A DNA stretch of 64,000 nt. Origin: Candidatus Nanoarchaeia archaeon (lineage in GTDB: Archaea; Nanobdellota; Nanobdellia; Woesearchaeales; UBA525). The position numbers were made by a program, and so were the translations under genes. Shown one piece after another: positions 2,307 to 43,393 of this stretch (positions are counted from its first letter, which is position 1; each line of letters opens with the position of its first letter). The stretch lies in assembly GCA_028279755.1 (NCBI GenBank), contig JANQNB010000010.1:92963-156962 (forward strand). Direction: 5' to 3'. The notes below the pieces were generated by a model, which had not been told where the DNA came from, made no database searches, and saw only the letters and a program-made list of their open reading frames with translations.

Positions 2307-5108
2307 TCAGCCGAATATGTTCCTGATCCAGCTCGCGATGCGCTGGAGCAGGTTGGTGTTCTCTGCGATGTCCAGGTCGAGGCTCTTACAGACTGCGTTG
2401 TAGCATTGGTTGCTGACGCACTCGTAGTCGTTCTGGCATGCGCTGCCGTCCCGTTGCTGGTTCACGAACTCGCCGAAGATGCTGCAATAGGTCGCAACTC
2501 CATTCGCCAGCCGGGTTCCGTATGGGAGGCATCTGCCGTTTGATGCGCAGCCGTCCATGCATTCGGTGGTCGGCTCCTCGTCGTCAGGAGGTGGCATGTC
2601 ATTGTCGTAGCACACGCAGTTCTCGTAGCCCTGGCCGTAGCAGACGAGCTGTCCGTCACACTCAGGGGTTTGCTCCTCGTCGTAGTAGCAGTCGCAATGG
2701 CCCTGGCTGTCGCAATACAGAGTGCCGCCATCCTCGCATTCAGGCTCTGGAACAGCCGGGCAGGGGTAGAATGCGCAGTTGTTGTTCGGATCGCGTCCGA
2801 CAGAGCTGCCGTCAGGGCAGAGCTTTGCGTCGCTGGTGCAATAGGTCGGGTTTGGTGTGGTCCGGTGGCCAGTGATCCAGAACACGACAACGCGGTTGTC
2901 GATGTCCTTGACTGACAAGGCACCGCGGAAGTTGCCGCTGGTGAACCTGCTCGTGCCGCCTTCAGCCACTTGCACTCGTTGCCCGTTCACGCTGAACACG
3001 ACCTGATTGGGAGAAGGCAAGCACTTGCCTGCGCCGGTGCCTGGCTCGCAGTTCGCGACAAAGCCGTAGAACACGCCGTCCACGCACACCTTGAGCTCGT
3101 AGTCGTACAGCTCATAGGTCTCGCATTCGCCTTGCTTCAGCTTACCCTCGACGCCTTCATCAGTGGGCTCGTCGAACAGGGTGATCATGTTCTCAACGAG
3201 CAGGTACTTCCTGCTTGTGCCTGGATAGCCCCTTGAGATTGTCTCGAATCCGTCTCCACGGAGGTGGTGCCAGCCGACATTCGCGAGCTGGTGTTCCTCG
3301 CCGGACATCTTCTTGCCCTTGAGCAGCATGGCGTGCTTCTTGTACAGGACGAAGACCAATCCCGCGGTCAGCTCGCTGTCGTCAAGCTGCTCATACGCGT
3401 CGATGTCAAGCATTGCCATGCCGACCGCGATGGGGTTGACGACTTCCTCATCAGCATGGATAATATCCACTTCAGGTCCTGCTTCCTGGAGTGCTCGCGC
3501 AAGATCGATCGCGTCCAGGATGTCGCTGGTGGGCGCCTGGTGGCCGACAACGATGGTGACATCAGGTTCGTCATTCGGCACGATGTCTGGACACGCTTTT
3601 GGCCAGAGCTCGAAATGCGCAACGCCGACCTGCTCGTCAGCGCTCGGGCTGATGCCGTGGTCGATGCGTGTCACCTTGATGGTGCCGCACCGCAATTCCT
3701 GCTTCTCGCCGACGTGCAATGCGCGGGAGACTTGGCCTTCGAGCATGAACTTCGCGCTTGGCCTGTTATCAAGGCTTGGCGCGTCCTCTGCTGCGCCAGC
3801 ATACTTGTCTTCCCAGTACAGCGGGTTGCTCACCCAGGTGAGAGTGAGCTCGTAGTTGCGGTTGTTGTGCCAGTAGTTCTCAGTGTCGCCTTCTCTGAGG
3901 CTGTCTTCGATTGGCGCAGGCGTGCTGGTCGCGCTGAATTTGCCGATGACTGCCCAGCCAGTGACGTAGTCAGTGTCCAGGAGGTGGAATTTCATACCTT
4001 CTGCTTGACCGTACTGGCCGACACGTACAGTGACTTCCTGGCCCTCGTACTCGCTCGCCCAGACGCTGAACGTGGCGTGGTTCTGCTCTGCGTCTTCGAG
4101 CATGATCTGGTAGCGCTTCCCGTCCAAGTACACAGCGTGCACATCGCCTTCATAGAGTTTGACATAGCCGTGAGGCACAGTGCTGCAGCTGCGTGGCCAG
4201 AAGGTGAATTCTGCCTGTCCCTGGTCGCCGCTCGCTGTCACGCTGTTGCCGATGCTCTCGACCTTGATCGTGCCGCACTCTGTGCTGTCTCGCTCGCCAG
4301 GATGGAGCGCTGCTGTCAGCTCGTCGTTGATCACGAACTTCGCGCTCGGCTGGTTGTCGAGTGGTTGTGCATCAGCAGCCTGTCCGCTTTCATGTTCTTC
4401 ACCGTCTTCCCAGTAGAGGGCGTTGCTCACCCATGCGAGGGTGATCTCGTATTCTTCGCCGCCCCAGTGGTAGGTCTTGGTCTCGCCCTCGCGGAGCGTG
4501 TCCCGGAACGCGTCGTCCATTGGTGGCTCGTCATCGTCCAGCAAGGCTTCGATCTTCTCCTCGAAGGTGCTGTACGGGTGTGCGCCGCTGACAAGCTCGC
4601 CGTTGATGAAGAATGCCGGTGTTCCTCGTACGCCGCGGCCTTCGCCTTCTTCGATGTCATCCTCGACGTCTTCGGCAGTGGAATCCTTGTCCAGGCAATG
4701 GGCCATGCTGCTCTCGTCCATGCCGACCCAGCCAGCCCAGCGGAGATAGTAGTCATAGTCGAGCTGATCCTGGTTATTGTAGACATATTCGATGTATTCG
4801 TACATCACGTCCTTGTCTGCTGCGCATTCGATGGCTTTGGAAGCGTCGAACGCGTTCTGGTGGAAGCTCAGCGGGAAGTGTCGATAGACGATCTTCACGT
4901 CGCCGTCTTCTACGTAGTTCTCATAGATCTCTGGGAATGTGTCGCGGTACCATCTGCCGCAGAACGGGCATTCGGGATCGCTGTACCATTCGATCGTGAC
5001 CGGCGCGTCTTCGTCGCCGAGTGTCTTGTATTTCTCCTGGTATGCGAGCGCTGCTGGCGCGACCATGAGCGCCACTGCGATGAGTGCTATCCATTGTGTC
5101 CATTTCAT
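2307..5108 (-). CDS. Large secreted protein: signal peptide + DsbA/thioredoxin-like domain (CPFC) + two internal ~90-aa repeats + CPDGS cysteine repeat + shared C-terminal module
   Basis: MKWTQWIALIAVALMVAPAALA is a signal peptide. 'WYSDPECPFCGRWY…RHFPLSFHQNAFDA…GTPAFFINGELV' is a DsbA-family thioredoxin fold with a CxxC. Duplicated block (…LREGETKTYHWGGEEYEITLAWVSNALYWEDG…QPLDNQPSAKFVIN…ECGTIKVESIG vs …LREGDTENYWHNNRNYELTLTWVSNPLYWEDK…PSLDNRPSAKFMLE…RCGTIKVTRID). The C-terminus …SDAKLCPDGSSVGRDPNNNCAFYPCP…CQNDYECVSNQCYNAVCKSLDLDIAEN…WIRNIFG matches the 985..2148 product. Confidence 0.65.
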   Translation of the reverse strand: MKWTQWIALIAVALMVAPAALAYQEKYKTLGDEDAPVTIEWYSDPECPFCGRWYRDTFPEIYENYVEDGDVKIVYRHFPLSFHQNAFDASKAIECAADKDVMYEYIEYVYNNQDQLDYDYYLRWAGWVGMDESSMAHCLDKDSTAEDVEDDIEEGEGRGVRGTPAFFINGELVSGAHPYSTFEEKIEALLDDDEPPMDDAFRDTLREGETKTYHWGGEEYEITLAWVSNALYWEDGEEHESGQAADAQPLDNQPSAKFVINDELTAALHPGERDSTECGTIKVESIGNSVTASGDQGQAEFTFWPRSCSTVPHGYVKLYEGDVHAVYLDGKRYQIMLEDAEQNHATFSVWASEYEGQEVTVRVGQYGQAEGMKFHLLDTDYVTGWAVIGKFSATSTPAPIEDSLREGDTENYWHNNRNYELTLTWVSNPLYWEDKYAGAAEDAPSLDNRPSAKFMLEGQVSRALHVGEKQELRCGTIKVTRIDHGISPSADEQVGVAHFELWPKACPDIVPNDEPDVTIVVGHQAPTSDILDAIDLARALQEAGPEVDIIHADEEVVNPIAVGMAMLDIDAYEQLDDSELTAGLVFVLYKKHAMLLKGKKMSGEEHQLANVGWHHLRGDGFETISRGYPGTSRKYLLVENMITLFDEPTDEGVEGKLKQGECETYELYDYELKVCVDGVFYGFVANCEPGTGAGKCLPSPNQVVFSVNGQRVQVAEGGTSRFTSGNFRGALSVKDIDNRVVVFWITGHRTTPNPTYCTSDAKLCPDGSSVGRDPNNNCAFYPCPAVPEPECEDGGTLYCDSQGHCDCYYDEEQTPECDGQLVCYGQGYENCVCYDNDMPPPDDEEPTTECMDGCASNGRCLPYGTRLANGVATYCSIFGEFVNQQRDGSACQNDYECVSNQCYNAVCKSLDLDIAENTNLLQRIASWIRNIFG

Positions 5109-6882: not shown

Positions 6883-8070
6883 ATGCATACGACAGGCATG
6901 GCAACGATCCTCCTGAACGGCATACCCGGCATGCGGAAAGGCGAGCTCGTGCGGCGAGTACAGGCAAACGCAACCCTGTTCGGCGTCGATCGCACGATCC
7001 ATTCGATCTCCCTCGGCGACATCGTCGGCAAGCGGGCGCAGCAGCTTTTCGGAACCCGTCCGGAAGACGTTTGCCGTGCAGACTATTCATATCAGCAAGC
7101 CCTTCGGCGCCTGGCGCAAAGAGAAGCCCTCGAACAATTGGCACGCCTGCCAAGCGATGATCACGTCCTCTTTGATCTGCCGTTCACGCTCTCGACAGAG
7201 CATGGCTCTGTCCCTGACCTTGTCTTCCACCAGGCAGAGATCCAGGAATGGCACGACGCGCGATCGATCGATCATGTCATCTCGCTGCTGGACATTCCTG
7301 AACGTGTCGCTGACCGCCTTGTCGGCACGATCTATCCGAATGATGCGACGAGCAATGCGGATGTCAACAAGATCCTCGATTGGATGGTGTACGACGGGCT
7401 CATGGCCCGCTCCTTGGCACCGTATGATCACACGACATACAATAGCGCGGTTCCAACGCTCGCGATCCCGCGCGACGAAGCAGAGATCACCTTGCTCAAG
7501 ATACTGCACGAAGACGAGCGCGGACAACGCATGCACCAGGATTATCCTGTTGTTTATCTCGCCGGTCCGATCTCGAAGCTGAAAGAGGACCAGAAGGACA
7601 GGCCAAAGGTTCGTGATGAGAAAGCCATGCTTCGCGCCCGTCTTGATCGTTTCCAGGCGAAGATGCAACGCTACGCCATCACGATCGTGCCGATGAAGAT
7701 CGCGGATGCGCGAGCCCACGACGCGACCCAGATCGCGAACACAGTCTATCGCGACAAGCACTTCTTCGTGACTGGCGCAACCTTCACGGTCGCGTACTAT
7801 CCGAGCGCGAACAAGAGCTATCAGAGCGCGGGAACCATGGAGGAGTTGCGCCACGGCCTCCGCCTGGGCAAGCCGGCTGTGCTGATCCATCCAGGCATCA
7901 AGGACGGCGTGACTGCAGACGGTGAGGTCTTCGGCGTCAGGCCGCGCTTATGCTTCCGTAACCAGACACGGTTCTTCGACGCGCTGGAAGAGCACGGGCT
8001 CTTGCAGTCAATGAAGTCAGAAGGGGCTCCGCGCTATGATTGCATGCGCGACGCGATGAGGGTTATATGA
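6883..8070 (+). CDS. Hypothetical protein. N-terminal P-loop-like segment; C-terminal half has a nucleoside 2-deoxyribosyltransferase-like 'VVYLAGPI' Rossmann motif.
   Basis: Long ORF with typical codon usage. 'ILLNGIPGMRKGELV' is a degenerate P-loop; 'YPVVYLAGPISKLKED' resembles the NDT/LOG-fold motif. The function call is an inference only. Confidence 0.5.
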   Translation: MHTTGMATILLNGIPGMRKGELVRRVQANATLFGVDRTIHSISLGDIVGKRAQQLFGTRPEDVCRADYSYQQALRRLAQREALEQLARLPSDDHVLFDLPFTLSTEHGSVPDLVFHQAEIQEWHDARSIDHVISLLDIPERVADRLVGTIYPNDATSNADVNKILDWMVYDGLMARSLAPYDHTTYNSAVPTLAIPRDEAEITLLKILHEDERGQRMHQDYPVVYLAGPISKLKEDQKDRPKVRDEKAMLRARLDRFQAKMQRYAITIVPMKIADARAHDATQIANTVYRDKHFFVTGATFTVAYYPSANKSYQSAGTMEELRHGLRLGKPAVLIHPGIKDGVTADGEVFGVRPRLCFRNQTRFFDALEEHGLLQSMKSEGAPRYDCMRDAMRVI

Positions 8071-9121
8071 TCTTCGAGATGATCCCTTTGTCAGCGTCAA
8101 CCGCGACCTTGTCGCCAGTCTTGAAGTTCCTGGTGGCGTTGAATGCCTGGATGATGCACGGCACGCCGAGCTCGCGCGAGACGACTGCGGCGTGGCTCAA
8201 GAACCCGCCTTGCTCAGCGACGATGGCGCTCGCTTTCTTGCAGAGCAGAATAATGTCAGGGCTGGTGGATTCTGCGATGAGGATGTCGCCTTCGTGCATG
8301 GTCTTGTTGGCTGCAGCGATAGCCTCCTCGTTGTTCAGCATCGGGACCACGACAGCACGGCCCTTCGCCACGCCCGGGTTCGCCGGCACACCCGTGATCT
8401 TGGATGCTGGCTCGTATTTCGTGAAGTCGTCGAACAGCTGCTGCGCTTCCGCTGAGGAGAAGTGGGTTATCTTCCCGTCGATGACTGTGGCTGCATAGCA
8501 TTCCTTGCGTTCCAGAATCAGCTGTTCTGGTGGTAGTTCGCCGCTGAAAAGCGCGAGCAGCTCTTCTCGGTAGAGGTAGCGCGCCCAGTCTTCCTTGAGA
8601 AAGGTCTTTGACAGGTATGCGAGGAGATTGTCGATCACCCCGTCCTTGAAGAAATACGCGTTCATGATTTCGCGCGCAGTGAACTTGAACGTGCTCATGC
8701 GCTCCAAGCGCTCCTTTATTCCCTCGTCTGCTACGCTATAGGCTTCATCAAGGTATGGGAACTCGGCAAAGCCGTAGTAGTACCAAAGCCTGCCGAGAAA
8801 TTCGGAGACAGAGGAGAATTCCTCGAGGGTCATTGTCTCAGGAACCGTGTTGTAGTGCGCGATGACCTCTTTGGCTTCTTCGACATAGTCTTGGAATTCC
8901 TGAAAGAGCGCTTCGAAGCGTTGGGGAGTTCCGTACAGCGCTATCCCTGCCTTGCCAAGCGCTGGCAATTGTTCGCTCTGAAAGAATATGTGATAGTCCT
9001 GGCCCTTGCTCACGAGCAGCAAGTGTGCCTTGGCGAGGCTGCTGTGCAGCAGGAAGTCGTTGTGCAGACAGCTCACTTGTGCTGCAATGCTGAAGAACTT
9101 GGTGTAGTCCGCAGGATCCAT
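8063..9121 (-). CDS. PEP-utilizer 'swivel' phospho-His domain protein, paralog 0 (unknown N-terminal helical domain + C-terminal PEP-utilizers mobile domain)
   Basis: C-terminus …GDILIAESTSPDIILLCKKASAIVAEQGGFLSHAAVVSRELGVPCIIQ matches the His-domain of PpsA/PPDK (E. coli PpsA: GDVLVT.MTDPDW…[29 protein letters not shown]). There is no ATP-grasp domain and no PEP-binding domain. The start overlaps the PCNA stop (ATGA). Confidence 0.7.
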   Translation of the reverse strand: MDPADYTKFFSIAAQVSCLHNDFLLHSSLAKAHLLLVSKGQDYHIFFQSEQLPALGKAGIALYGTPQRFEALFQEFQDYVEEAKEVIAHYNTVPETMTLEEFSSVSEFLGRLWYYYGFAEFPYLDEAYSVADEGIKERLERMSTFKFTAREIMNAYFFKDGVIDNLLAYLSKTFLKEDWARYLYREELLALFSGELPPEQLILERKECYAATVIDGKITHFSSAEAQQLFDDFTKYEPASKITGVPANPGVAKGRAVVVPMLNNEEAIAAANKTMHEGDILIAESTSPDIILLCKKASAIVAEQGGFLSHAAVVSRELGVPCIIQAFNATRNFKTGDKVAVDADKGIISKII

Positions 9122-9858
9122 CAGTCGTTGTCGACTCGTGGCGCCAGGATGAACATGAGCTGCATCTTGTCCTTGACCGTGTAGTCGAGCTTGAGCGGGT
9201 AGTCCTTGCTGAACTGGAGCGAGGCCGTATCTGCGAGCTTGGCACCTTGGATCATCTTCTTGAGATACTCGATCGAGTACTTGCTCTTGGTCTCTTCCTT
9301 GGCCTCGATAGAGGTGCTCTCGTCCGGCAGGATCTCGACTTCCGCCTTGCTCAGGTCAGAAGAGCTGCTGATCCGGAAAGCCTTGCTGTCAGCCATGAAC
9401 GCGACGCTCTCGCCAATGATGTCCACGTCTTCGACCGCGTCGTTGATCACAGCCGCGTCGGTCGAGACTTTTGCTGCGAACTCCAGCGAGGGCACTTTCT
9501 GCTCCTTCTCCTCGACGTCGATGAGCGGCAGCAGGAATTCTCGCTTGCTCTTGCCTTTCAGCGTGACTTTCAGCTTCGCCTCGGGATTCTCGAGCGTGAT
9601 CGTATCGCTCGGCTTCACTCTGCGCAGGACCTGCTTGAGATCGTTGAGATTGATCGCCAAGGTGCGCTCGGTCTTTGCGTCGTATTCGACGAAGCAGCTG
9701 CTCAGGAGCTTGTACACGACCATCGCGACATTCGCCGGGTCCATGGCGATGAGCTCCATGCCGTTCTTGGTCACCTGGAACCGTACTTCTGTGACAAGGT
9801 CTGCGATGATGCTGACGCTCTCCTTGAGAAATTTCGTATCTGCAAGCGTGAGTTTCAT
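9121..9858 (-). CDS. pcn: DNA polymerase sliding clamp PCNA
   Basis: 245 aa. MKLTLADTKFLKESVSIIADLVTEVRF…MELIAMDPANVAMVVYKL…KVSTDAAVINDAVE… has the archaeal PCNA fold signature and length. Confidence 0.85.
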   Translation of the reverse strand: MKLTLADTKFLKESVSIIADLVTEVRFQVTKNGMELIAMDPANVAMVVYKLLSSCFVEYDAKTERTLAINLNDLKQVLRRVKPSDTITLENPEAKLKVTLKGKSKREFLLPLIDVEEKEQKVPSLEFAAKVSTDAAVINDAVEDVDIIGESVAFMADSKAFRISSSSDLSKAEVEILPDESTSIEAKEETKSKYSIEYLKKMIQGAKLADTASLQFSKDYPLKLDYTVKDKMQLMFILAPRVDND

Positions 9859-9946
9859 TATTTCCCCCTCAGTTACCCTTAGAAGAGCGGAGCGCGCGAC
9901 GCTATTTAAAGGTTTTTACAGAATATAAAGCCACAAACGCGTCATC

Positions 9947-10333
9947 TCACTGGAAGAGCTGATCTAGTTCGTCTACGAGGTCACCTTTCTCTATCATGGT
10001 TTTGGGATTCAGGTTGTATTCCTGCGCGACTGCATTGTCGTTCTCAGAGATGTGATTGGACATGAGGATGATCCGCTCTTTGCCAACACCCTGCTCTATC
10101 AGGAATTTCCGCATCTCAGGACCGGCGCGGTAGCTTGGTCCATCTACCCGATCCAAATAGCCGCACATGTCAAGCAAATACAGATCGTACACGTCGCCCA
10201 TTTGCATGAAGAGGTCCTTGCCGGCGGCGACATCCGAGACGCCCGCGACGCTGGTATCAGTCCACCTCATCAACTCGCCAATAATGAAGATCCAATCAGG
10301 ATCATCATCTAGGACAAAAACGTCGATACTCAT
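9947..10333 (-). CDS. Stand-alone CheY-like response-regulator receiver domain protein
   Basis: Started at the internal Met MSIDVFVLDDDPD…, whose ATG overlaps the stop of 10330..11736 (ATGA). Receiver hallmarks present: DD pair (LDDD), phospho-acceptor Asp in 'LYLLDMCGY', S/T in 'ILMSNH', Lys in 'NLNPKT'. No output domain. Confidence 0.6.
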   Translation of the reverse strand: MSIDVFVLDDDPDWIFIIGELMRWTDTSVAGVSDVAAGKDLFMQMGDVYDLYLLDMCGYLDRVDGPSYRAGPEMRKFLIEQGVGKERIILMSNHISENDNAVAQEYNLNPKTMIEKGDLVDELDQLFQ

Positions 10334-11736
10334 ACGATCGCCACCGTACCGTTTTCCGCATCCACGCGGATCCTGTCGCCGTCCTTGATCAGCGTTGTCG
10401 CGTGTCTCGTGCCGATCACACACGGTTTCTTCAGCTCGCGCGCGACGATTGCTGCGTGGCAGGTGATCCCGCCTTCGTCAGTCACGAATGCTGCAGCGCG
10501 TTCCATGGCTGGCAGGTAATCAGGCGTGGTCATTGCGGTCACGAGAATCTCGCCTTTCTGCAAGCGCGCGTTCTCTTTCGGCTCCTGTATCAAGCGGGCG
10601 ACACCTTCAACTGTGCCTGGGAACGCGGTCTGGCCCTTGATCGCCTTGCCTTGCTGGACTTCTTCTCGCAAGGGCTTTGCCGGTGCGTAGATTTGGCGCT
10701 TTTGGATCGTGTTTGTGCCGCCAAAGCTCTGCTTGCGAGCTTCCTTCTTCTGCTCAAGAAGCGCGAGGTCTTGTTTATGGATCGTACAAAGCTCGTCGAA
10801 TGTCAGCCAGTGTATCTCCTGTGCTGGCCAGCCGATCTTCTTGCCGATGAGTTCCAACAATGGCAGGAGCTTGTACGCTGCGAGGTTGATGTTGTCCTTG
10901 ATGAACGTCGGGAAGAAGATCCATTCGCGATATTCCTTGATCAGCTGCTGCTCGTCCTCAGATAATGAGAGTTTTGCGATTGCTGCATTGATTTTTTCTT
11001 CAGTTTTTCTTGACCCTTCTTTGAATTCCTGCAGTTCTTTTTTCGGGTTTTGTATTCCTTTAGCTCTTTTTTTCAGTTCAGCCTGTGTCAACGGCGATCC
11101 CCTGAACCAGTGATAGTTGAGCCAATCAAAATCCCTGATGAACTGTGCATATCCTTCCTCGCTTGGCGCTATTGCGAGTCGCAGCAAGGCTTCTTTCTGC
11201 GCTGTCACGACGGTTTTCTTCAATGGCTCTTGGAACAAGCGCATTGTCGCGTCGAATTCTTCAAGGCGCTCTTGTTCTGCGAGACGTGTGGCGACGATCG
11301 CGCGCACTTGTTCGCCGAGCACTGCGCTCATCTGGACAGAGCCGCGATAGCTGATATAGCCGGTCATCCAGAGGAAGGCTTCGATTTCTTGCTTGAACAA
11401 TGCTGCGAGCTCCTTGAGCGTCTTGTCCTTATGCTGTGCTGGATCGAATGCATACCCCTCAATTGCTTTCACGCGCGCGTAGACTTTCGCAGCCATCTTT
11501 TTTGCATATGTTGTATCTTTCAGCATCAGACGCAGCTCGTCTTCGATCATCCTGATCTCTTCTGCGTCAAAGTAGATGTCGCCGTTCTCATACCTCGTTG
11601 CAGTCAGCCCTTGCGGGATCTCGAACTCCAGAGCACTACGACGCACGCTCTCGTTGTAGATCGACACTGAGAGCACGCTGTTTGTCTTGTTCATGGTCCA
11701 GTGCCATTGGAGCTCGTTTCCTAACGCATTCATCAT
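10330..11736 (-). CDS. PEP-utilizer 'swivel' phospho-His domain protein, paralog 1
   Basis: C-terminus …GEILVTAMTTPDYLPAMERAAAFVTDEGGITCHAAIVARELKKPCVIGTRHATTLIKDGDRIRVDAENGTVAIV. The ~330-aa N-terminus is helical with a W/Y-rich block (…NYHWFRGSPLT…) shared with the paralogs. Confidence 0.75.
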   Translation of the reverse strand: MMNALGNELQWHWTMNKTNSVLSVSIYNESVRRSALEFEIPQGLTATRYENGDIYFDAEEIRMIEDELRLMLKDTTYAKKMAAKVYARVKAIEGYAFDPAQHKDKTLKELAALFKQEIEAFLWMTGYISYRGSVQMSAVLGEQVRAIVATRLAEQERLEEFDATMRLFQEPLKKTVVTAQKEALLRLAIAPSEEGYAQFIRDFDWLNYHWFRGSPLTQAELKKRAKGIQNPKKELQEFKEGSRKTEEKINAAIAKLSLSEDEQQLIKEYREWIFFPTFIKDNINLAAYKLLPLLELIGKKIGWPAQEIHWLTFDELCTIHKQDLALLEQKKEARKQSFGGTNTIQKRQIYAPAKPLREEVQQGKAIKGQTAFPGTVEGVARLIQEPKENARLQKGEILVTAMTTPDYLPAMERAAAFVTDEGGITCHAAIVARELKKPCVIGTRHATTLIKDGDRIRVDAENGTVAIV

Positions 11737-11791
11737 GAAGAAGGAGTGGCATCCGAAACATTTATGTATTCGCTCTCCATTTTTAGAGAGT

Positions 11792-12535
11792 ATGGAGCCT
11801 TCTTTCCTCGAGGAACTCGGCCTGACGCCTGGCGAAGCAAGGATCTACCTCGCATTGCTCGAGCTTGGCGAGAGCAAGGTCGGCAAGGTGATCGAGAAGA
11901 CCGGCATGGCGAGCAGCGCTGTGCACAACGCGCTGAACACAATCGCGGAGAAAGGCCTTGTCACCCATATCCTGCGCGGCAAGATCAAGAATTACCGTGC
12001 AGTCCCGCCGAAACAGCTCCTCGACTATATCGACGACAAGCGGCGGCGCGTCAAGCAGCAGCTGCCTGCATTGCAGAGCCTGCACGCTGCCGCTGATCAG
12101 AAGACTGAAGCTGAGGTATATGAAGGCACGAAAGGCCTCATCACCATGCTCCACGACCTGATCAGCGAGATGACCAAGAAGGACACCTATCGCTTCTTCG
12201 CGCTCGAGCAGGCTGGTCGCAATGAAGAGATCCAGCGCTTCTTCCGGCGCTATGATGTGCTCCGCGCAGAGCGGTGCAAGGCAGTGAAGGGCATCGCGCC
12301 GAGAAAGATCAAGCGCGTTTTCGAAAAGCGGCCACACCTCACAATGCGCTATACAGAGGAAGCCTTGCCGAACAACATGATCATCTGCCGCGACAAGATG
12401 GCCTTCATCAACTGGGATGACAAGCCCAGCGGCGTGCTGATCAGGTCAGCGCAGCTCGCTGCGAAGTACACGCGCTTCTTCGACGCGATGTGGACTAGGC
12501 GATCTTCACGCGCTCGCCGTTCTTCACGATCCTGA
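11792..12535 (+). CDS. TrmB-family transcriptional regulator, divergently transcribed from the PEP-utilizer gene at 11736
   Basis: Started at MEPSFLEELGLTPGEARIYLALLELGESKVGKVIEKTGMASSAVHNALNTIAEKGLV…, the TrmB N-terminal wHTH. The upstream part of the track ORF (from 11687) is a likely over-extension. The 55-bp divergent intergenic region has AT-rich TATA-like sequence. Confidence 0.7.
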   Translation: MEPSFLEELGLTPGEARIYLALLELGESKVGKVIEKTGMASSAVHNALNTIAEKGLVTHILRGKIKNYRAVPPKQLLDYIDDKRRRVKQQLPALQSLHAAADQKTEAEVYEGTKGLITMLHDLISEMTKKDTYRFFALEQAGRNEEIQRFFRRYDVLRAERCKAVKGIAPRKIKRVFEKRPHLTMRYTEEALPNNMIICRDKMAFINWDDKPSGVLIRSAQLAAKYTRFFDAMWTRRSSRARRSSRS

Positions 12536-13922
12536 TCTGGTTGGGCTTGTAGCCGACCTCTTTCGCGAGTTCCTTGAACGCCACGAGTTGTTTCATCTCG
12601 CCGTGCGTCGGGATGATGTTCTTCGGCTTGAGCATGTTCAGGAAGTCGCGGCCGTCCTCGCGCGCGCCGTGCCCGCTGACGTGGATATTGTCGAAGATGC
12701 GCACGTGACGCGATTGCAGCTTCGCGTCCAATCGCTTCCTGTTCTCCAGGCTCACCGGCACCGGAATCGTCTTTGAGGAGAACACGACCATGTCGTTGTC
12801 AGTCAAGCGCAGCAGGTTCTCGTTCACGATGCGTGACAAGACCGCTTTCGGCTCGCCCTGGTGCCCGGTCGCGACGAAGAGGAATTTGCCCGGATCGGTG
12901 ATCTTCTTCAGGTAGCTCTTCACCTTGCTGCCGTAGCGCACCTTCTCCACATCTGAGAAGTCTGCGAGGTCGACTGCTTCGGCTGCGTCGGTGTACTTCG
13001 AGAGCGAGCGTCCCAAGAACACTGTCTGTCGTTTCATCATCTTCGCCACGTTCACGATCGCGCGCAAGCGTGCGATATGGCTCGAAAATGTCGAGACGAT
13101 GATCGTCGCGTCACGCGATTGCGTCCCCAGAAGCACGTCTTTCAGCATCTCCTCAGCGATCTTTTCAGAAGGCGTCTTGATTGGCTGGTCTGCGTACAAG
13201 GTGTCGAGGATCAAATAGTCCACTTGCCCTTCGAGCTCGCGCAGGCGTGCATAGTTCGGCTTTGGTCCTAAGGTGGGATTGTTGTCGAACTTGAAGTCGT
13301 TCGCGTACAGCACCTTACCATAGGGTGTGTGCACCAAGGCCATCACGGTGTGCGGTGCGCTGTGCGTGATGTAGATGAACTCGATCTCGAATTTCGTTCC
13401 GACGCGGAAGCGGTCGTTCACGTCGTGCTCGACCAGCGTGCCCCGTGGCATGCGCTTCTCGTCGTCGTACATGCGGTCGACGAGCTCGATCGTGAATGGC
13501 GCTGCGTGGATGTCGCAGTCGAACTTGTTCGCGATGTATGGCACTGAGCCGATGTGGTCCAGGTGCGCGTGCGTGAGCACGATGCCGACCACATTCTTCT
13601 TCAGCTTTCCCAGGATGTCGACGTTCGGCGCCGCCCCGATCTCGATCAGTTTCCTTCCTGAGATCTCAACGAACTCGTCAGTGTCGGTGTATTCGATGTA
13701 CTTGTCCATCATGAGCCCGAGATCGAGCACCACGACTTCGTCGTCTGCGCGGATCGCGACGCTGTTGCGGCCGATCTCTGAGAAGCCTCCTAATGGGATG
13801 ATCTCCATCTTGGCCTTGCTGTTCTCGATCGCTTTTGTTGTCAGTTCTTTGATCCGTTTCTTGAACGGACGTCTTTTAGTCTTCTTTCTATGTGGTTTCT
13901 GTCTATTTCTTTGTCTATTCAT
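12495..13922 (-). CDS. rnj: Ribonuclease J (archaeal beta-CASP metallo-beta-lactamase RNase) with an unusual ~38-aa Lys/Arg-rich N-terminal extension
   Basis: …MEIIPLGGFSEIGRNSVAIRADDEVVVLDLG…VLTHAHLDHIGSVPY…YITHSAPH…ATGHQGEP…HVSGHGARED… carries MBL motifs 1-4 and the beta-CASP A/B/C motifs. N-terminal MNRQRNRQKPHRKKTKRRPFKKRIKELTTKAIENSKAK precedes the canonical MEIIPLGG start. Confidence 0.8.
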   Translation of the reverse strand: MNRQRNRQKPHRKKTKRRPFKKRIKELTTKAIENSKAKMEIIPLGGFSEIGRNSVAIRADDEVVVLDLGLMMDKYIEYTDTDEFVEISGRKLIEIGAAPNVDILGKLKKNVVGIVLTHAHLDHIGSVPYIANKFDCDIHAAPFTIELVDRMYDDEKRMPRGTLVEHDVNDRFRVGTKFEIEFIYITHSAPHTVMALVHTPYGKVLYANDFKFDNNPTLGPKPNYARLRELEGQVDYLILDTLYADQPIKTPSEKIAEEMLKDVLLGTQSRDATIIVSTFSSHIARLRAIVNVAKMMKRQTVFLGRSLSKYTDAAEAVDLADFSDVEKVRYGSKVKSYLKKITDPGKFLFVATGHQGEPKAVLSRIVNENLLRLTDNDMVVFSSKTIPVPVSLENRKRLDAKLQSRHVRIFDNIHVSGHGAREDGRDFLNMLKPKNIIPTHGEMKQLVAFKELAKEVGYKPNQIRIVKNGERVKIA

Positions 13923-14100
13923 TTTCTAACTCCGAGAGAATCCGAATGGTTTAGGTGCTTCAAAAGCCGCCCAGGCCTCCCGGGCTTTACCCCTATGGGT
14001 TCTCTCTCACAGCGATGCTGTGTATTGCGCTGGAAAAACTGCCAGTCCTTTATAAACCTATGCTTTTTATCGCTTGGAACCTATGTTTTGAAGAATAATT

Positions 14101-14110
14101 TTCTATATAG
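14101..14110. promoter_or_regulatory. Perfect palindrome TCTATATAGA embedded in an extended AT-rich near-palindrome (GAATAATTTTCTATATAGAAATTTATTTC); candidate TATA/operator element between PEP-utilizer paralog 2 and rnj
   Basis: Seen directly. The same 10-mer, in a ~25-bp similar context, recurs at 45955..45964. Confidence 0.35.
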
Positions 14111-14114
14111 AAAT

Positions 14115-15359
14115 TTATTTCAGCTTACGCACAATGCCCTTCTCAGCGTCGACTTCGATCATCTCGCCGTCTTTGAAGGCCCGTGTCGCTAGCTCTGTAC
14201 CGATAATGCAAGGCTTCTGCATCTCCCGTGCAACGATCGCAGCGTGACAGAGAATGCCTCCCTCGTCAGTCACGAACGCAGCAGCGCGATGCATAGCCCC
14301 GATCAGCTCCGGTGTGGTATTGCCTGTGACGAGGATTTCGCCTTCTCGCAACGCGTTCGCATCAGCCTGCGATAACACGATCCTGGCCTTTCCCTGCACC
14401 TTGCCGGCAAAAGCAGGCTCTCCACGCACTTCATCAACAGCCACTGGATCATATTCGGTAAGCTGTTCGTCAGCGATCAACTGCTCCACAGCATCCTTGC
14501 CTTCACAGGTGGAATAGGTATCATCACGCAAGAGGATTCCGTAGTGCTCGCTACGAATCTTATTCTGCGGAAGCCCGCCGCCATCAAGCCACGCGAAGAA
14601 TTCGTCCTCGAAGCAATTCATCACTGCTTCCTCATCCAGGTTCATCGCTTCCAAGGTCTTGCGCATCGCCCAGCTCGCGCGCACCACAGCGGCCTTTCCC
14701 TGATCAAGCACGTACAATGATTTCTGTGCGCACTGCACAAGCCACGAATCCTCTTTGCCATCTTCTTCATGCACGTGTTTCTTGACACTTTGCAGAGCTG
14801 CCGTGTACTCTTCGATACCCCATTCCTGTGCCATATATTCGGAGTGCAACCAGCCAAAACGGGAAGCCAAGGATGCGACATCATCTTTGTCCGCATCAAT
14901 GATTGCCTGGTGTTCCTGTTGCACCATGGTTGACTTGAACGGACGAGCCAAACGAAGATTAATATCGCTTGGACACCCAGGTTCTTGTTTGACCAAAGCA
15001 ACAAAATCCTTACCAATCCAATGGCCCATTGCCATGACTGCCATGACCCGACCAAATGTTTCGTAACAGACACGAATATGTTCTTTGTCCTTTCCTGGTT
15101 TGAGCTTGAGCACTTCTTCGATGAATTTCATGTGGTGATCGAAAAACGCGTCAACATCTTCTTGAGAAGAGGTTGTGATATTTGACACAGTATTTCTCTC
15201 AGGATAGAACATAATGCTCGCGCTCTGGTTCTTCACCACAAGCCCGTGCTTGATTTGCCAGAAGACAGGGTCATGCTTGTTTCCCTTGCGGGATTCGATA
15301 AGAAACTTATGCCATTGCAGCGGATAGATATTCCGTTGCACCACCTTAATCCATTTCAC
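14115..15359 (-). CDS. PEP-utilizer 'swivel' phospho-His domain protein, paralog 2
   Basis: C-terminus …GEILVTGNTTPELIGAMHRAAAFVTDEGGILCHAAIVAREMQKPCIIGTELATRAFKDGEMIEVDAEKGIVRKLK. The 5' end overlaps the stop of paralog 3 by 4 nt. Confidence 0.75.
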   Translation of the reverse strand: MKWIKVVQRNIYPLQWHKFLIESRKGNKHDPVFWQIKHGLVVKNQSASIMFYPERNTVSNITTSSQEDVDAFFDHHMKFIEEVLKLKPGKDKEHIRVCYETFGRVMAVMAMGHWIGKDFVALVKQEPGCPSDINLRLARPFKSTMVQQEHQAIIDADKDDVASLASRFGWLHSEYMAQEWGIEEYTAALQSVKKHVHEEDGKEDSWLVQCAQKSLYVLDQGKAAVVRASWAMRKTLEAMNLDEEAVMNCFEDEFFAWLDGGGLPQNKIRSEHYGILLRDDTYSTCEGKDAVEQLIADEQLTEYDPVAVDEVRGEPAFAGKVQGKARIVLSQADANALREGEILVTGNTTPELIGAMHRAAAFVTDEGGILCHAAIVAREMQKPCIIGTELATRAFKDGEMIEVDAEKGIVRKLK

Positions 15360-16654
15360 AGCTTCTTCACCACTCCCTTACTTGCATCGAGTAGGAGTGT
15401 ATCGCCATTCTTGAAGATTCCGGTCGCATCTTTCGTGCCGATCACGCACGGTTTGCGCATCTCGCGGGAAACAATCGCTGCGTGGCAGGTGATTCCGCCT
15501 TCGTCTGTGACGAACGCAGCTGCCTTGTGCATCGCCGGCATCATGTCAGGGGTTGTCATGCTTGTCACGAGGATCTCGCCGTCCTGGACCTGTGCCAAGT
15601 CCTTGTGCGAAAAGATGAGCCGTGCTGTACCGCGGATCGTGCCAGGGTAGGTGCCCCGTCCCTCAACCTTGTTGCCCGTGGCGCTGCTCTTGAACAAGAC
15701 TTTAATCTCCTTGTTCTCTTTCCCGGTGAGGATGGTCATCTGGTGCTCTTCGCCGATGAACGCGAATTCCTCCTGGCGTTCCTTGAGGTCTTTCGGCGGG
15801 GTTTCGAGCTCGTCCACCATGCAATGCAAGAGCTCGTCATAGGTCAGGTCTTTCTCTTTCGCGATCACTTTGAGCTTGTCTGCGTACTCATAAGCGACGC
15901 GGTTCATCACGTCGGTGCGTTGCGTCCGGTAATAGATGAAGAACTGCATCAGGTCGACAAGGAAGGCCTTGTCGCCCATCACGCTTTTCGCTTTCGCGAT
16001 CGCAGCGGTGATCGCCGCTTTTTCCTTCTCCTGCGTTTCGAGATAGTTCGAGGCTTTGAGATCCTTCAGCAGGATCTCTGCATCGTTCTCAGTGAGTTCG
16101 ACGATGCGGCCGTAGCGTGAGTGGAGAAACGGAAATTGCTCCATGAATGCTTGCTTGTCCTTGAGAATGAGCTGGTTCGCGAGCTTGTGATAGTTATCAA
16201 GAAGCGGCGTTGACAGCAATGTCATGAGCTCTGCAATCGTTTCCTCATCGAAATGCGGGCTGAGCAGGCTTTTCACCTTATTCTCGATCTGGCTGTCGCA
16301 GATGAAATAGACGCCTAAGCAGGGGATATACTCCCGATATGCCTGGCAGAAGGTCTGCAGATCCTCCTTCACCGCTGCGAGCAACGCGGCTTCTTTCTTG
16401 AGCGTGACTTTTTTCAGCATCTGCCAGAACTCTTCGTTCTTGAACAGCCTGACCTTCAGCTTCTTGGGAAATTCTTGCATGTAATAGCGCGTGTAGTACC
16501 AGACCCGGTCGATATTGATCAGATCGTTCACGACTTCATCGATGTCGAACGCTTGCCAGATTTCCCTGCTCTGATACGCTTGGAAGATGAGCGAGATATA
16601 GAACGGCGGATACGGGCGCCTGACCGTCTTCTGGAACTTCGCAGGATCAACCAA
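15356..16654 (-). CDS. PEP-utilizer 'swivel' phospho-His domain protein, paralog 3
   Basis: C-terminus …GEILVTSMTTPDMMPAMHKAAAFVTDEGGITCHAAIVSREMRKPCVIGTKDATGIFKNGDTLLLDASKGVVKKL. The 5' end overlaps paralog 4 by 8 nt. Confidence 0.75.
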   Translation of the reverse strand: MVDPAKFQKTVRRPYPPFYISLIFQAYQSREIWQAFDIDEVVNDLINIDRVWYYTRYYMQEFPKKLKVRLFKNEEFWQMLKKVTLKKEAALLAAVKEDLQTFCQAYREYIPCLGVYFICDSQIENKVKSLLSPHFDEETIAELMTLLSTPLLDNYHKLANQLILKDKQAFMEQFPFLHSRYGRIVELTENDAEILLKDLKASNYLETQEKEKAAITAAIAKAKSVMGDKAFLVDLMQFFIYYRTQRTDVMNRVAYEYADKLKVIAKEKDLTYDELLHCMVDELETPPKDLKERQEEFAFIGEEHQMTILTGKENKEIKVLFKSSATGNKVEGRGTYPGTIRGTARLIFSHKDLAQVQDGEILVTSMTTPDMMPAMHKAAAFVTDEGGITCHAAIVSREMRKPCVIGTKDATGIFKNGDTLLLDASKGVVKKL

Positions 16655-18068
16655 TGCGCCTCACCACACCTTTCTCTGCATCGACCTCGACAAGATCGCC
16701 GTCTTTGAAGACTTCTGTCGCGATCCTTGTCGCGATCACGCAGGGCTTCTTCAGTTCGCGCGCGACGATGGCTGCGTGGCACGTGATGCCGCCTTCGTCT
16801 GTGACGATGGCTGCCGCTCTTTTCATCGCTGGCACGTATTCCGGCAAGGTCATGCCGCAAATCAAGATGTCGCCATCTTCGACCTTCGCGAGCGCTTCTC
16901 TGGCGCCAGCGCAGACTTTTGCTGTTCCTCGAGCCGCGCCAGGGCTTGCACTCTCTCCTTTCACTTCTGTGATCGTATCATCGACTGAGGGCACGACCTC
17001 TTCTTTCTTGCGAAGCGCTTCTTCGCCACTCCATCGCTCGATAGCGCCTTTTGACGCGATCCCACCAACAGCCTTTTTGCGAATCTCGATTTCATTCGTG
17101 TCAGTCTTCCCGGTTCTCATGAGTTCCAAGAGTTCATCATGCCACAACCATTCAAGGTCATCATGTTCGAAGCCATGACGGCGCGCAGTTTCAGTCACGA
17201 ACAAATCAGTTGCGTGCACAGTCTTGCATTGCATCTCTTTGCGCATGTCGTGCCAGTAGGTATACTCTTCAAACAAGTCTATTTGGTATTGTGTTTCTTC
17301 AGAAAGCTTGTATTGCTCAAACAGTGTTCGCTTTTCTTTCTTGATCCGCTCGACGTATCCTTGAATCTCCTCAAGTTCTGTTGTGCCAGTCTTCTCAATT
17401 TCTTTGATCTGCGCAAGATAGCTTCCTTTGGTGTTCAGCGCAAGCGTTTCCCATCCGAGCACTGTCCACCAGTATTTCTCGACGATCTCATTGATCTTTT
17501 TGTAGTCTTTGCTCTGCGCGACTTCGAGCAGCATCTTTTTTTCCGCTTGCAGATAACTTTCATATGCTGGCGAGCTCAAGACACGCCAGAGTTTGACAAA
17601 CTCTTCCTCGCTCACGCCCAATTCTCGTTTGACGCGCGCTTTCAATCGCTCTGCTGGCAAGATGTCAACAGCGTCAACGTCACTGTTGAGGAATCCGTGC
17701 GGTGGCCAGACCGCTTCAAGGAATGCTTCATATGCACTGGCGAGTTCTTCATCACTGAGACTTGTCAAGTCCATTGCGCGGATCTTCTCAACAGCTGCAA
17801 CTGCCTGGTCAAAGGCTTGCTGCATCTTGGCAAAGTGTCGCTTTCGCTTCTCTGGCGTGCTCGTCTGCGCAAGAATGTGTTTTCCTGTCGCTTCGAGCTC
17901 GTCACGGTCCCAGGCAAACCACATCTTCGGCCCAAGGTTGCAATAGAACGTGCTTCCTGCTTCACCACCATTATACTCTGCGCCGTACTTGGCCGCGCCA
18001 AACAACACCATGCTCAGCTTGATCGGATGGATGGTTCCACGGGTGTACATCTCCCAGTTATGTTTCAT
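16647..18068 (-). CDS. PEP-utilizer 'swivel' phospho-His domain protein, paralog 4
   Basis: C-terminus …GDILICGMTLPEYVPAMKRAAAIVTDEGGITCHAAIVARELKKPCVIATRIATEVFKDGDLVEVDAEKGVVRRIG. The N-domain shares the 'LSDEELA..' and 'KYWWTVLGW' blocks with paralog 5. Confidence 0.75.
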   Translation of the reverse strand: MKHNWEMYTRGTIHPIKLSMVLFGAAKYGAEYNGGEAGSTFYCNLGPKMWFAWDRDELEATGKHILAQTSTPEKRKRHFAKMQQAFDQAVAAVEKIRAMDLTSLSDEELASAYEAFLEAVWPPHGFLNSDVDAVDILPAERLKARVKRELGVSEEEFVKLWRVLSSPAYESYLQAEKKMLLEVAQSKDYKKINEIVEKYWWTVLGWETLALNTKGSYLAQIKEIEKTGTTELEEIQGYVERIKKEKRTLFEQYKLSEETQYQIDLFEEYTYWHDMRKEMQCKTVHATDLFVTETARRHGFEHDDLEWLWHDELLELMRTGKTDTNEIEIRKKAVGGIASKGAIERWSGEEALRKKEEVVPSVDDTITEVKGESASPGAARGTAKVCAGAREALAKVEDGDILICGMTLPEYVPAMKRAAAIVTDEGGITCHAAIVARELKKPCVIATRIATEVFKDGDLVEVDAEKGVVRRIG

Positions 18069-19471
18069 ACGCGCCTCACCACGCCTTTTGTCGTATCTAC
18101 TTCAATAGTGTCGCCGTCCTTGAAGATCTTCGTCGCGACGCGCGTGCCGACGATGCAGGGCAAGCCGAGTTCGCGGGAAACGATCGCAGCGTGCGACGTC
18201 ATTCCGCCTTCGTCTGTCACGATCGCACTTGCTTTCCGCATCGCGACCACGTAGTCAGGCGAAGTCATCGGCGCGAGCAAGATCTCGCCGTCTTTCATCT
18301 TTTCCACATTGCGCGGCGTGAGCAGAATCCGCGCCTTTCCCTGCACGATCCCTGTGCCCTGACTCACCACGATGCCGGAAGCTTCGTCTTCGTTTTCGAT
18401 CTCGACTTCCTGGTATGGCTCGATCATCCGTCGCGCTTCGTTACCCACATGATAGGTGAGGGTATCACCTTCGTCGTAATGGCAGAGATAGCCACGATAG
18501 CGTTCTTGCGCATTCTCCACTGTTTCTCCCTTGTTGGCGAGCGCTGAAATCTCTGGCACGTTGTAATAGCAGAGCTCCTTGAACGGAATGCCTTTACGTT
18601 TGCCCAGTTCTTCGAGAATCTTCGAAACGACGTGGTTGCTGATGAAGATGAACTGCTTGCGATAGTCCTGCCACCAGATGCTGTAGCTCAAGCGGCGCGC
18701 GACCTCATAGACCTCGTCAGCGATATTGTACTTCTCCCTGACTCTCTCTTTTTCCTCAAGAACCTTGACTTTATATTCTTCGATCGCTGCGACTTTCTTT
18801 TTCGCTTCGTTCAGGGAGATATTGTTAAGCTCTTCCTGGAATTCCTCTTTTGTCTTCTCAAACGTGAATCCATAGCTGTTCCTGATCCAGTAGTATTTCT
18901 TCTGGTGCTCTTCAAGCGTCGTCTCGCCGAGCTTCACCTTGAGCAAGTCCAGCTCTTCTGTCTGGTAAAAACTCAAATCCTCAGGTGTTGACAGTTTCTC
19001 GAATAGTTCGATAAAGGCCTCATGCCCTTCCAACAATCGTTTCAGTTTTTGTTCCCCGCCCCAGTTGGAGAATTCAGGCAATAAGCCGGTGATCCAGAAG
19101 TCCATGTCCCAGTCGCAGAGATTGTTCCACACGCCAGCGAGCTCTTCGTCAGACAGTCTTGTCAGGTCTGCATTGACTTGCTCTTCAAGTTCACGGAGAC
19201 GAACCAAAGTTGCTTCCCACTTCTTGAAATGCTGCTCTGCACTTTCCTTGTCCATGAGATGCGCGTTGAACAGTTTCTCACCGTAGTCGCGCAGCTTCCA
19301 GTATTCGACCACGAAGAGCACCTTGTCATCTTCGAAATACGCGAAGGATTCAGGCCAGGGGACTTCCCATACTTTGCCGTACTTGGGAAAGCTGTGGTTG
19401 AAGAAGTCTGGATAGATCGGCCGGCCGTCGATAGGCCCCCATTTGAAGAGTTCCTTGTTTAGGTCGATCAT
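18065..19471 (-). CDS. PEP-utilizer 'swivel' phospho-His domain protein, paralog 5
   Basis: C-terminus …[74 protein letters not shown]. The N-domain has …[13 protein letters not shown]… and …[12 protein letters not shown]…. Confidence 0.75.
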   Translation of the reverse strand: [468 protein letters not shown]

Positions 19472-24178: not shown

Positions 24179-24182
24179 GCCG

Positions 24183-25568: not shown

Positions 25569-25569
25569 C

Positions 25570-43237: not shown

Positions 43238-43393
43238 ATGTTCCTCGTGAAGTGTCCGCGCTGCGGCAAGAACCAGAAGTGCCAGCCAAAGCCAGGCCTC
43301 GTCACAACGAAAAGCAAGCGCTGCGTCTACTGCGGACGAACATTCAAGATCCATTCTAACTTAGAAAAGAGCAGGATTGTGAGAAAGCTCTAA
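43238..43393 (+). CDS. Candidate small zinc-ribbon protein (51 aa; not in ORF track)
   Basis: Hand translation: [51 protein letters not shown] has two CxxC pairs (CPRC…CVYC). TATA-like 'catataaaca' ~20 bp upstream. The 3' end overlaps the gyrA stop convergently. Confidence 0.35.

Follow-up and report, generated by a model that had tools for sequence, protein, structure and literature searches.

Two-component dikinases consist of an H component, such as HpeH, CreH or PpsA, which joins a domain like the rifampin (RIF)-binding domain of rifampin phosphotransferase (RPH) to a swivel domain, and of a separate ATP-grasp protein, HpeI, CreI or PpsB (PMC12167813). The characterized pairs are HpeHI, acting on hydroxyphenylethanones, CreHI, acting on 4-methylphenol, and the phenylphosphate synthase PpsAB (PMC12167813). 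Arg666 and Glu667 of RPH are required for its second phosphotransfer, and Lys670 belongs to the same hydrogen-bond network (PMC4844700). Here, we describe six minus-strand genes, P0 to P5, in a 64,000-nucleotide (nt) stretch of DNA from a Candidatus Nanoarchaeia archaeon (contig JANQNB010000010.1, positions 92,963 to 156,962; hereafter the window). We use the term H-type component for a protein in which a phospho-histidine swivel domain comes after a domain that binds the substrate, and our preferred reading, which we hold to be reasonably probable by analogy with the systems above, is that P0 to P5 are the H-type components of a split RPH-like dikinase. Each paralog would have a different substrate and all would be charged by a separately encoded ATP-grasp protein (G), whose gene in this genome would lie outside the window. 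The initial annotation did not recognize the array as a described system, which holds for part of it: split RPH-like dikinases were known before (PMC12167813), but full-text literature searches found no description of these arrays or of the compact subfamily in DPANN archaea and bacteria of the candidate phyla radiation (CPR). What looks new is the organization, with many H genes in an array, one G and very large fusions.

Domain structure of the six paralogs

The comparisons draw on 86 loci in all (79 from GTDB species representatives, nearly all of these CPR/Patescibacteria or DPANN, together with 7 other contexts and 30 kb from the start of the window), in which 262 of 1,226 open reading frames (ORFs) are members of the family. 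In a Pfam scan, the PEP-utilizer mobile domain (PF00391) was the sole domain in each of the six window proteins, at the extreme C-terminus (E 5e-23 to 1e-27), and neither the ATP-grasp domain PPDK_N (PF01326) nor the TIM barrel (PF02896) matched any of them at E≤1. This is the pattern that had been predicted from the sequence, a C-terminal swivel domain without ATP-grasp or TIM barrel, and it is the basis on which we class P0 to P5 as H-type. The catalytic His and the motif GG..[C/S]HAA are invariant across the six aligned paralogs, and the His is kept in 224 of 225 family members. The motif reads GGMTSHAA in P5 (catalytic residue His427), GGITCHAA in P4, P3 and P1, GGILCHAA in P2, where the Thr at position −2 is absent, and GGFLSHAAV in P0. 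In sequence, the swivel domains come nearest to archaeal phosphoenolpyruvate (PEP) synthase (8a8e; E 4e-28 with P5 as the only query, 3e-47 with the family profile).

The remainder of each protein resembles the substrate-binding part of RPH. In P5, the RPH-type substrate-binding domain spans amino acids (aa) 1 to approximately 355 and is followed by the swivel His domain. An AlphaFold2 model of P5 built from 76 homologs (pLDDT 96.3, pTM 0.93) retrieved six RPH-Lm entries at the top of a Foldseek search (E ~3e-13, query template modelling (TM) score 0.55–0.60), with all other entries at a TM score of ≤0.21. As modelled, the N-terminal domain has the fold of the RPH RIF-binding domain and not that of PPDK_N, which rules out a diverged ATP-grasp. 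The NCBIfam alignment of P1 places aa 232–467 on positions 617–867 of an RPH-like model. A RIF-binding-domain-like part joined to a swivel domain is the architecture of the HpeH, CreH and PpsA H components.

The initial annotation had assigned a different N-terminal domain to each paralog; they form instead one diverged homologous family. A jackhmmer search with N-terminal domains (C-terminal 115 residues removed, family members from the 86 loci) recovered all six, with E values of 4e-76 for P4, 5e-44 for P1, 4e-39 for P3, 1e-20 for P2 and 5e-17 for P0. BLAST links the domain of P4 to those of P5 (6e-11) and P1 (1e-5), and the kinship of P2 is visible by profile only. The most conserved N-terminal motif of the family, W-W-Q-D-x-R-K, falls on functional residues of RPH in a profile-to-sequence alignment, in which W-W-Q268-D269-x-R271-K272 (P5 numbering) lies on G-Y-R666-E667-Y-P-K670. 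Among 225 members, residue 268 varies between Q, R, K and H, an acidic residue (D or E) occupies position 269 in 61%, R271 occurs in 79% and residue 272 is basic (K or R) in 72%. This apex motif is canonical in P5 (W-W-Q268-D269-Y-R271-K272) and P4 (H-D-M-R-K), partly degenerate in P3 (R-T-Q-R-T) and P2 (L-D-Q-G-K) and degenerate in P1 (P-T-F-I-K). P0 carries A-R150-E151, which resembles the RPH residues; R150 does not vary within the P0 subfamily.

All six genes are intact. An independent Logan assembly of run SRR20820740 gave gene calls identical to those of the window for P0 to P5, and the coordinates, the lengths and the overlaps in the four consecutive genes P5 to P2 stand as first read (Table 1). 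The paralogs share 24–40% protein identity, and at the DNA level similarity is limited to a swivel segment of approximately 213 nt with 64–73% identity. Given such low identity between copies, the paralogs are old, and collapsed or recent duplicates and assembly artefacts are ruled out.

Arrays, subfamilies and the ATP-grasp partner

Tandem co-directional arrays are widespread in relatives: at least two members lie within ±10 kb in 45 of the 86 loci, almost always on one strand, with a maximum of 12 on a Nealsonbacteria contig. L089, a relative with 63% identity, has two paralogs only at the corresponding site. For 160 of the 179 genes in arrays of at least three, the nearest N-domain relative is found in another genome (median 161 versus 49 bits), which shows that the arrays are made up of ancient subfamilies and not of local duplications. 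Stringent ortholog clusters hold one member per locus.

The subfamilies differ in how far they can be traced. The P5 type has exactly one ortholog per array (350–480 bits, 41–51% identity even between the archaeon and CPR bacteria) and is also the form that occurs as a single copy. Orthologs of P4 are present in CPR and other DPANN arrays (the best in L009, 314 bits), and a P4-type gene adjoins its P5-type counterpart in L003, a CPR array, and, by position and length, in L089. P3 has an ortholog in L043 (157 bits, N-domain only), and P0 belongs to a subfamily of its own, with approximately 24 orthologs from Woesearchaeota and Parcubacteria. A one-to-one correspondence of the full set of six with other arrays was not upheld, as orthology is clear for P5 only, partial for P4 and P0 and limited to that single ortholog for P3. 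Against 1.84 billion cluster representatives (50% identity), the N-domain profile matched 3,443 at E≤1e-3 and 1,379 at E≤1e-10. These are mostly proteins of 450–500 aa, although multi-module proteins of 0.9–2.3 kaa recur. Database names for proteins of the arrays are 'PEP-utilizing enzyme', 'phosphohistidine swiveling domain-containing protein' or hypothetical only. Three distant relatives of approximately 578 aa (P0207, P0208 and P0216) combine PF00391 with PF27448, a model that may represent the HpeH/PpsA-type substrate domain.

Over the 86 loci, the most recurrent neighbour from outside the family was G, a stand-alone PPDK_N protein of approximately 314 aa (PF01326, E 7e-101). It is present in 18 of the 86 loci, always co-directional with the array and never more than once per locus, and in 11 of the 18 it lies at most 80 nt from a family gene. 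G aligns end to end with RPH's ATP-grasp domain (5hv6, 1.5e-65) and also matches PEP synthase (PPS; 7e-73) and the 387-aa protein 9goj, deposited as 'phosphoenolpyruvate synthase' (3e-50). The G proteins of relatives score best against PPS N-terminal models. Archaeal loci with a dedicated G are L010, L045 and L064.

In eight further loci, PPDK_N is fused to family modules within one ORF. Pfam-confirmed G-H fusions of 677–819 aa have the architecture of RPH itself, and G-H-H fusions of 1,154–1,313 aa (in L038, L056 and L085) contain one PPDK_N and two swivel domains by Pfam. The series extends to G-H4, an uninterrupted ORF of 1,994 aa (L086:6908-12892, plus strand), and to G-H8, an uninterrupted ORF of 3,761 aa in a Ca. 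Woesearchaeota archaeon (L049:6182-17467, plus strand; JAFGGS010000004.1), in which every H module has a separate GG..[C/S]HAA motif. H modules are also fused to each other, as in P0019 (794 aa), an H-H fusion on which the label PF02350 (UDP-GlcNAc 2-epimerase) is spurious. CPR orthologs of P0 lie directly downstream of a 1,019-aa G-H fusion (L093) and in an operon whose first gene encodes a G of 315 aa (L094). The fusions and shared operons support a model in which one ATP-grasp domain would charge many H modules. The separately encoded kinase partner that had been postulated for the array thus exists in relatives, as a stand-alone G and in fusions from G-H to G-H8, but none is encoded in the window.

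Other genes are tightly coupled to family members (gap 0–10 nt, same strand, often inside arrays), namely HAD hydrolases, small cytidylyltransferase-like proteins, HD-domain proteins, PTA_PTB proteins and hexapeptide acyltransferases. Most of these families act on phosphorylated small molecules, which fits small-molecule phosphorylation by the H proteins, without naming substrates.

A number of further associations were discarded. P0138, an N-domain with a PF08443 RimK label, comes from a 1.3-kb contig and has no more of a RimK-type ATP-grasp than its final ~65 residues, so that it is probably a chimera; a RimK gene also lies 3 kb upstream of the L007 array, but it is not a recurrent neighbour. 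Two genes, C4 (487 aa, inside the CPR array L003) and a 479-aa gene before the L007 array, are mutually unrelated, do not belong to the family and are not conserved partners. A 495-aa gene before the L091 array had no Pfam match. A side observation is a recurrent pair in five CPR loci, a DUF5674 protein (~115 aa) with a ~100-aa protein that has no known family, which stands inside the family array (L014, 15370-16028, and L055) or near family genes (L043, L057 and L058).

Proposed mechanism and alternative explanations

We infer the chemistry, the one-to-many charging and the diversity of substrates from RPH, PpsAB and HpeHI, on which the mechanism is modelled (PMC4844700, PMC12167813). ATP would be bound by the separately encoded PPDK_N protein G, and the swivel His of an H protein would attack the beta-phosphate, with the gamma-phosphate leaving as inorganic phosphate (Pi). 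The His~P domain would then swing back to its own N-terminal domain, where the apex motif [Q/R/K]-[D/E]-x-R-K would position His~P for transfer of its phosphate to a hydroxyl on the small molecule bound there, and AMP, Pi and the phosphorylated compound would result. One ATP-grasp protein would serve many H modules, and each paralog, as a distinct and anciently diverged subfamily, would presumably have its own substrate.

Several observations weigh against this reading. PPDK_N was not found in the window, either by Pfam in approximately 30 ORFs or by a six-frame search with a hidden Markov model (HMM) of the stand-alone G (best E 0.014), and G was not found within 10 kb in the two closest relatives examined. 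It is near 3 of 32 archaeal-labelled loci compared with 15 of 54 bacterial loci and, for arrays of at least three members with full flanks, near 1 of 6 archaeal compared with 5 of 8 bacterial. Four of the six window paralogs (P3, P2, P1 and partly P0) depart from the canonical apex motif, and some of them may therefore be catalytically altered. Furthermore, the swivel motif of the family is PPS-like, T-[C/S]-H, unlike that of HpeH and RPH, which have Met at position −2. This motif, the nearness of the swivel domains to archaeal PEP synthase and the scarcity of a dedicated G beside archaeal loci would be accounted for if the cell's canonical PEP synthase or PPDK charged the H modules in trans, through its ATP-grasp domain or with PEP through it. 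A recent preprint reports K01007 'PEP synthase' in 90–100% of Nanobdellota genomes, including 54 of 54 complete genomes of Pacearchaeales and ~90% of those of Woesearchaeales, which lack glycolysis, and calls its role uncharacterized (bioRxiv 10.64898/2026.05.13.725050). However, both G and H proteins score best, if only partially, against PEP-synthase models, and some of these calls may themselves be members of the dikinase-like family. The window contains no PPS or PPDK, three archaeal loci have a dedicated G and the G-H8 fusion is from a woesearchaeote. In addition, we know of no PPS that charges a foreign swivel domain, and we consider charging in trans unlikely.

The absence of G from the window and from the vicinity of most archaeal arrays could also mean that no kinase partner is needed, each H protein shuttling phosphate through its His in an ATP-independent exchange (X-P + Y -> X + Y-P). 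HpeH alone moves phosphate from 4-phosphoacetophenone to acetovanillone (PMC12167813), and the coupled HAD, HD, cytidylyltransferase and PTA_PTB families handle phosphorylated metabolites. The HpeH exchange, however, is a partial reaction of the dikinase cycle and not its physiological role, and the recurrence of a co-directional G, together with the G-Hn fusions, speaks for charging by ATP as the mode that is ancestral and common; ATP-independent exchange thus seems quite unlikely. A phosphorelay was another early suggestion. As a His-to-Asp relay or a phosphocarrier chain, it would have P1 or other paralogs hand phosphate from the swivel His to the receiver-like protein for signalling, which we judge very improbable. 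The 128-aa gene is indeed coupled to P1 by an ATGA overlap, as had been stated, and has acidic residues at the positions expected of a receiver. Its identity as a CheY-like receiver is weak, however: PF00072 scores 18.3 bits (E 0.0027), short of its cutoff of 30.2, and there is no PDB or NCBIfam match and no homolog in the other loci searched. A relay would leave the RPH-like substrate domain and the association with G unexplained, and we know of no PEP-utilizer swivel domain whose His passes phosphate to the Asp of a receiver. Finally, the best partial family matches of the proteins are PEP synthase models, scored far under their cutoffs, as might be expected of degenerate remnants, that is, truncated pps paralogs, pseudogenes or assembly artefacts without a function of their own. 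This is effectively refuted by six ORFs intact in two assemblies, an N-terminal domain with the RPH and not the PPDK_N fold, conserved motifs and thousands of N-domain cluster representatives, orthologs of each subfamily across genomes and the low DNA identity between copies.

DPANN archaea and CPR bacteria have genomes of approximately 1 Mb with very little recognisable metabolism. The arrays take up 8–17 kb in many of these genomes, roughly 1–2% of the total. Reading P0 to P5 as parts of split dikinases replaces an anonymous 'PEP-utilizing enzyme' label with a biochemical hypothesis, namely that these proteins are the substrate-specific halves of RPH-like dikinases, and would widen the recently defined subfamily of two-component dikinases beyond aromatic catabolism, adding a one-to-many architecture that is present in two domains of life. 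It also suggests that 'PEP synthase' calls in metabolic reconstructions of DPANN and CPR lineages merit a check for the TIM barrel. More speculatively, the arrays might be a kinase battery of one charger and many modules, in which 6–12 H modules, each specific for another small molecule, trap or activate metabolites scavenged from the host for the co-encoded HAD, HD, cytidylyltransferase and PTA enzymes. Such a battery would be a compact solution for DPANN and CPR symbionts with reduced genomes, and its proteins might explain the K01007 calls in Nanobdellota genomes without glycolysis, but we regard it as a tentative idea that is rather less likely to be right than wrong.

Genomic neighbourhood and comparison with known systems

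The coordinates of the array and of other features of the window are given in Table 1. The divergently transcribed TrmB-family regulator reported initially is confirmed. TrmB homologs occur in eight array loci, in three of which (L020, L039 and L075) they are close and divergent as in the window, and the array, or at least some of its genes, is probably under the control of TrmB. The junction of PCNA and P0 had been described as an ATGA overlap; it is TGATG, the PCNA stop and the P0 start sharing 1 nt. Functional linkage of the array to PCNA and RNase J was likewise not upheld, as both genes match in the syntenic L089 only and recur nowhere else. In L089, the order is beta-CASP, form III RuBisCO, AMP phosphorylase, R15P isomerase, array, RNase J and PCNA, and the two paralogs at the syntenic site correspond to P5 and P4 by position and length. 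The same neighbours around only two paralogs indicate that PCNA and RNase J are inherited neighbours among which the extra paralogs were inserted.

Table 1 Positions of the array genes and of other features in the window
Feature	Position	Strand	Length	Remarks
Very large ORF	2307-5108	minus		Hydrophobic, signal-peptide-like N-terminus
ORF convergent with P0	6883-8070	plus	395 aa	8-nt overlap at P0 3' end
P0	8063-9121	minus	352 aa	Short-form subfamily; N-terminal sheet kept, helical core trimmed
Receiver-like protein	9947-10333	minus	128 aa	ATGA-coupled to P1; membership in system uncertain
P1	10330-11736	minus	468 aa	H-type module; RNase J and TrmB stand between P1 and P2
TrmB-family regulator	11792-12535	plus	247 aa	PF01978, E 9e-13; divergent from P1, 55-nt intergenic region
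P2	14115-15359	minus	414 aa, GTG start	H-type module; 4-nt overlap with P3
P3	15356-16654	minus	432 aa, TTG start	H-type module; 8-nt overlap with P4
P4	16647-18068	minus	473 aa	H-type module; 4-nt overlap with P5
P5	18065-19471	minus	468 aa	Core subfamily, most conserved
R15P isomerase	21831-22691	minus		IF-2B family
AMP phosphorylase	22688-24178	minus
Form III RuBisCO	24183-25568	minus
Beta-CASP nuclease	25570-26874	minus
Very large ORF	28230-30491	plus		Hydrophobic, signal-peptide-like N-terminus
Very large ORF	35593-37614	plus		Hydrophobic, signal-peptide-like N-terminus
DNA gyrase subunit A	43390-45876	minus		PF00521, E 1e-170
Very large ORF	48368-52453	minus

The ORF convergent with P0 has a degenerate P-loop-like N-terminus (GIPGMRKGE), with no Pfam or NCBIfam match and no homolog in the other loci. 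This ORF, the receiver and a 168-aa ORF upstream of P5 were rejected as parts of the system, having neither a family match nor any recurrence. The cluster at 21831-26874 is syntenic with L089, and its R15P isomerase, AMP phosphorylase and form III RuBisCO genes are those of the archaeal AMP-salvage module. The very large ORFs encode 673–1,361 aa; one of 933 aa is rich in Cys at the C-terminus and has the motif C-P-F-C in its N-terminal part, and those of 753 and 673 aa match DUF6055 and a lamin-tail domain. The window encodes DNA gyrase subunit A among otherwise archaeal markers (PCNA, TrmB and an archaeal-type RNase J). Elsewhere, on the archaeal metagenome contig Ga0180433_10000242 (L005:8161-13525), a single-copy P5-type gene stands between UbiX/UbiD genes and genes for the large and small subunits of AcnX, and also adjoins GHMP-kinase and AA_kinase genes. 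These neighbour families are those of the archaeal mevalonate pathway; the context may be coincidence or a hint at the substrate (an isoprenoid alcohol or phosphate?).

P0 to P5 are not PEP synthase, PPDK, single-chain RPH or Enzyme I of the phosphotransferase system (PTS). By sequence, archaeal PPS is the nearest match to their swivel domain, down to the motif GG-x-T-[C/S]-H-A-A, but unlike PEP synthase and PPDK the six proteins have neither PPDK_N nor the TIM barrel, and their second domain is of the RPH type. NCBIfam PPS models score 91–126 bits against cutoffs of 598 and 740, in the swivel region only. Unlike Enzyme I and DhaM, the six proteins lack the PEP-binding C-domain, and among those window and neighbouring proteins that were scanned, none was recognized as HPr, EIIA or a further part of the PTS. 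The prodigiosin and undecylprodigiosin ligases PigC and RedH and the PRK06241-type proteins follow the same three-module logic, with partial NCBIfam alignments over the C-terminal ~110–240 residues; those enzymes, however, are single chains of ~840–930 aa (NCBIfam model lengths), and the scores here are far under their cutoffs. Similarity to the ~600-aa PRK08296-type NCBIfam models is confined to the swivel domain. MarK was considered as a related enzyme but is an unrelated UPF0261 kinase, and a paper on the CPR resistome only counts rph-like matches.

RPH (PDB 5FBS, 5FBT, 5FBU and 5HV1) is a single chain of 867 aa with ATP-grasp, RIF-binding and swivel domains, of which the ATP-grasp is absent from P0 to P5. 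Identity to RPH is 17–20%, and the substrate domain of the family is ~80 residues shorter, more so in P0. NCBIfam RPH models give 34–94 bits, far under the cutoffs of 999 and 1700, with NF041857 (single-chain RPH) at 56–94 bits against 999, and no evidence points to rifamycin as a substrate of the family. The closest match in organization is to HpeHI, CreHI and PpsAB, which likewise separate an H component, with an RPH-type domain and a C-terminal swivel, from a PPDK_N component of ~315–390 aa, and whose catalytic His lies in a GG...H motif at most ~50 residues before the C-terminus. The same reaction would also be expected, ATP + X-OH -> AMP + Pi + X-O-P via His~P. The H proteins of the DPANN/CPR family are nevertheless compact, at ~350–490 aa compared with 71 kDa for HpeH (PMC12167813), and their hosts are DPANN archaea and CPR bacteria with no aromatic-catabolism context, as opposed to free-living bacteria that degrade aromatics. 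Whereas the described systems are adjacent pairs in a 1:1 ratio, G is not adjacent in this window, and the family has many H modules per G (six here and up to 12 elsewhere), set out in arrays and joined in very large fusions.

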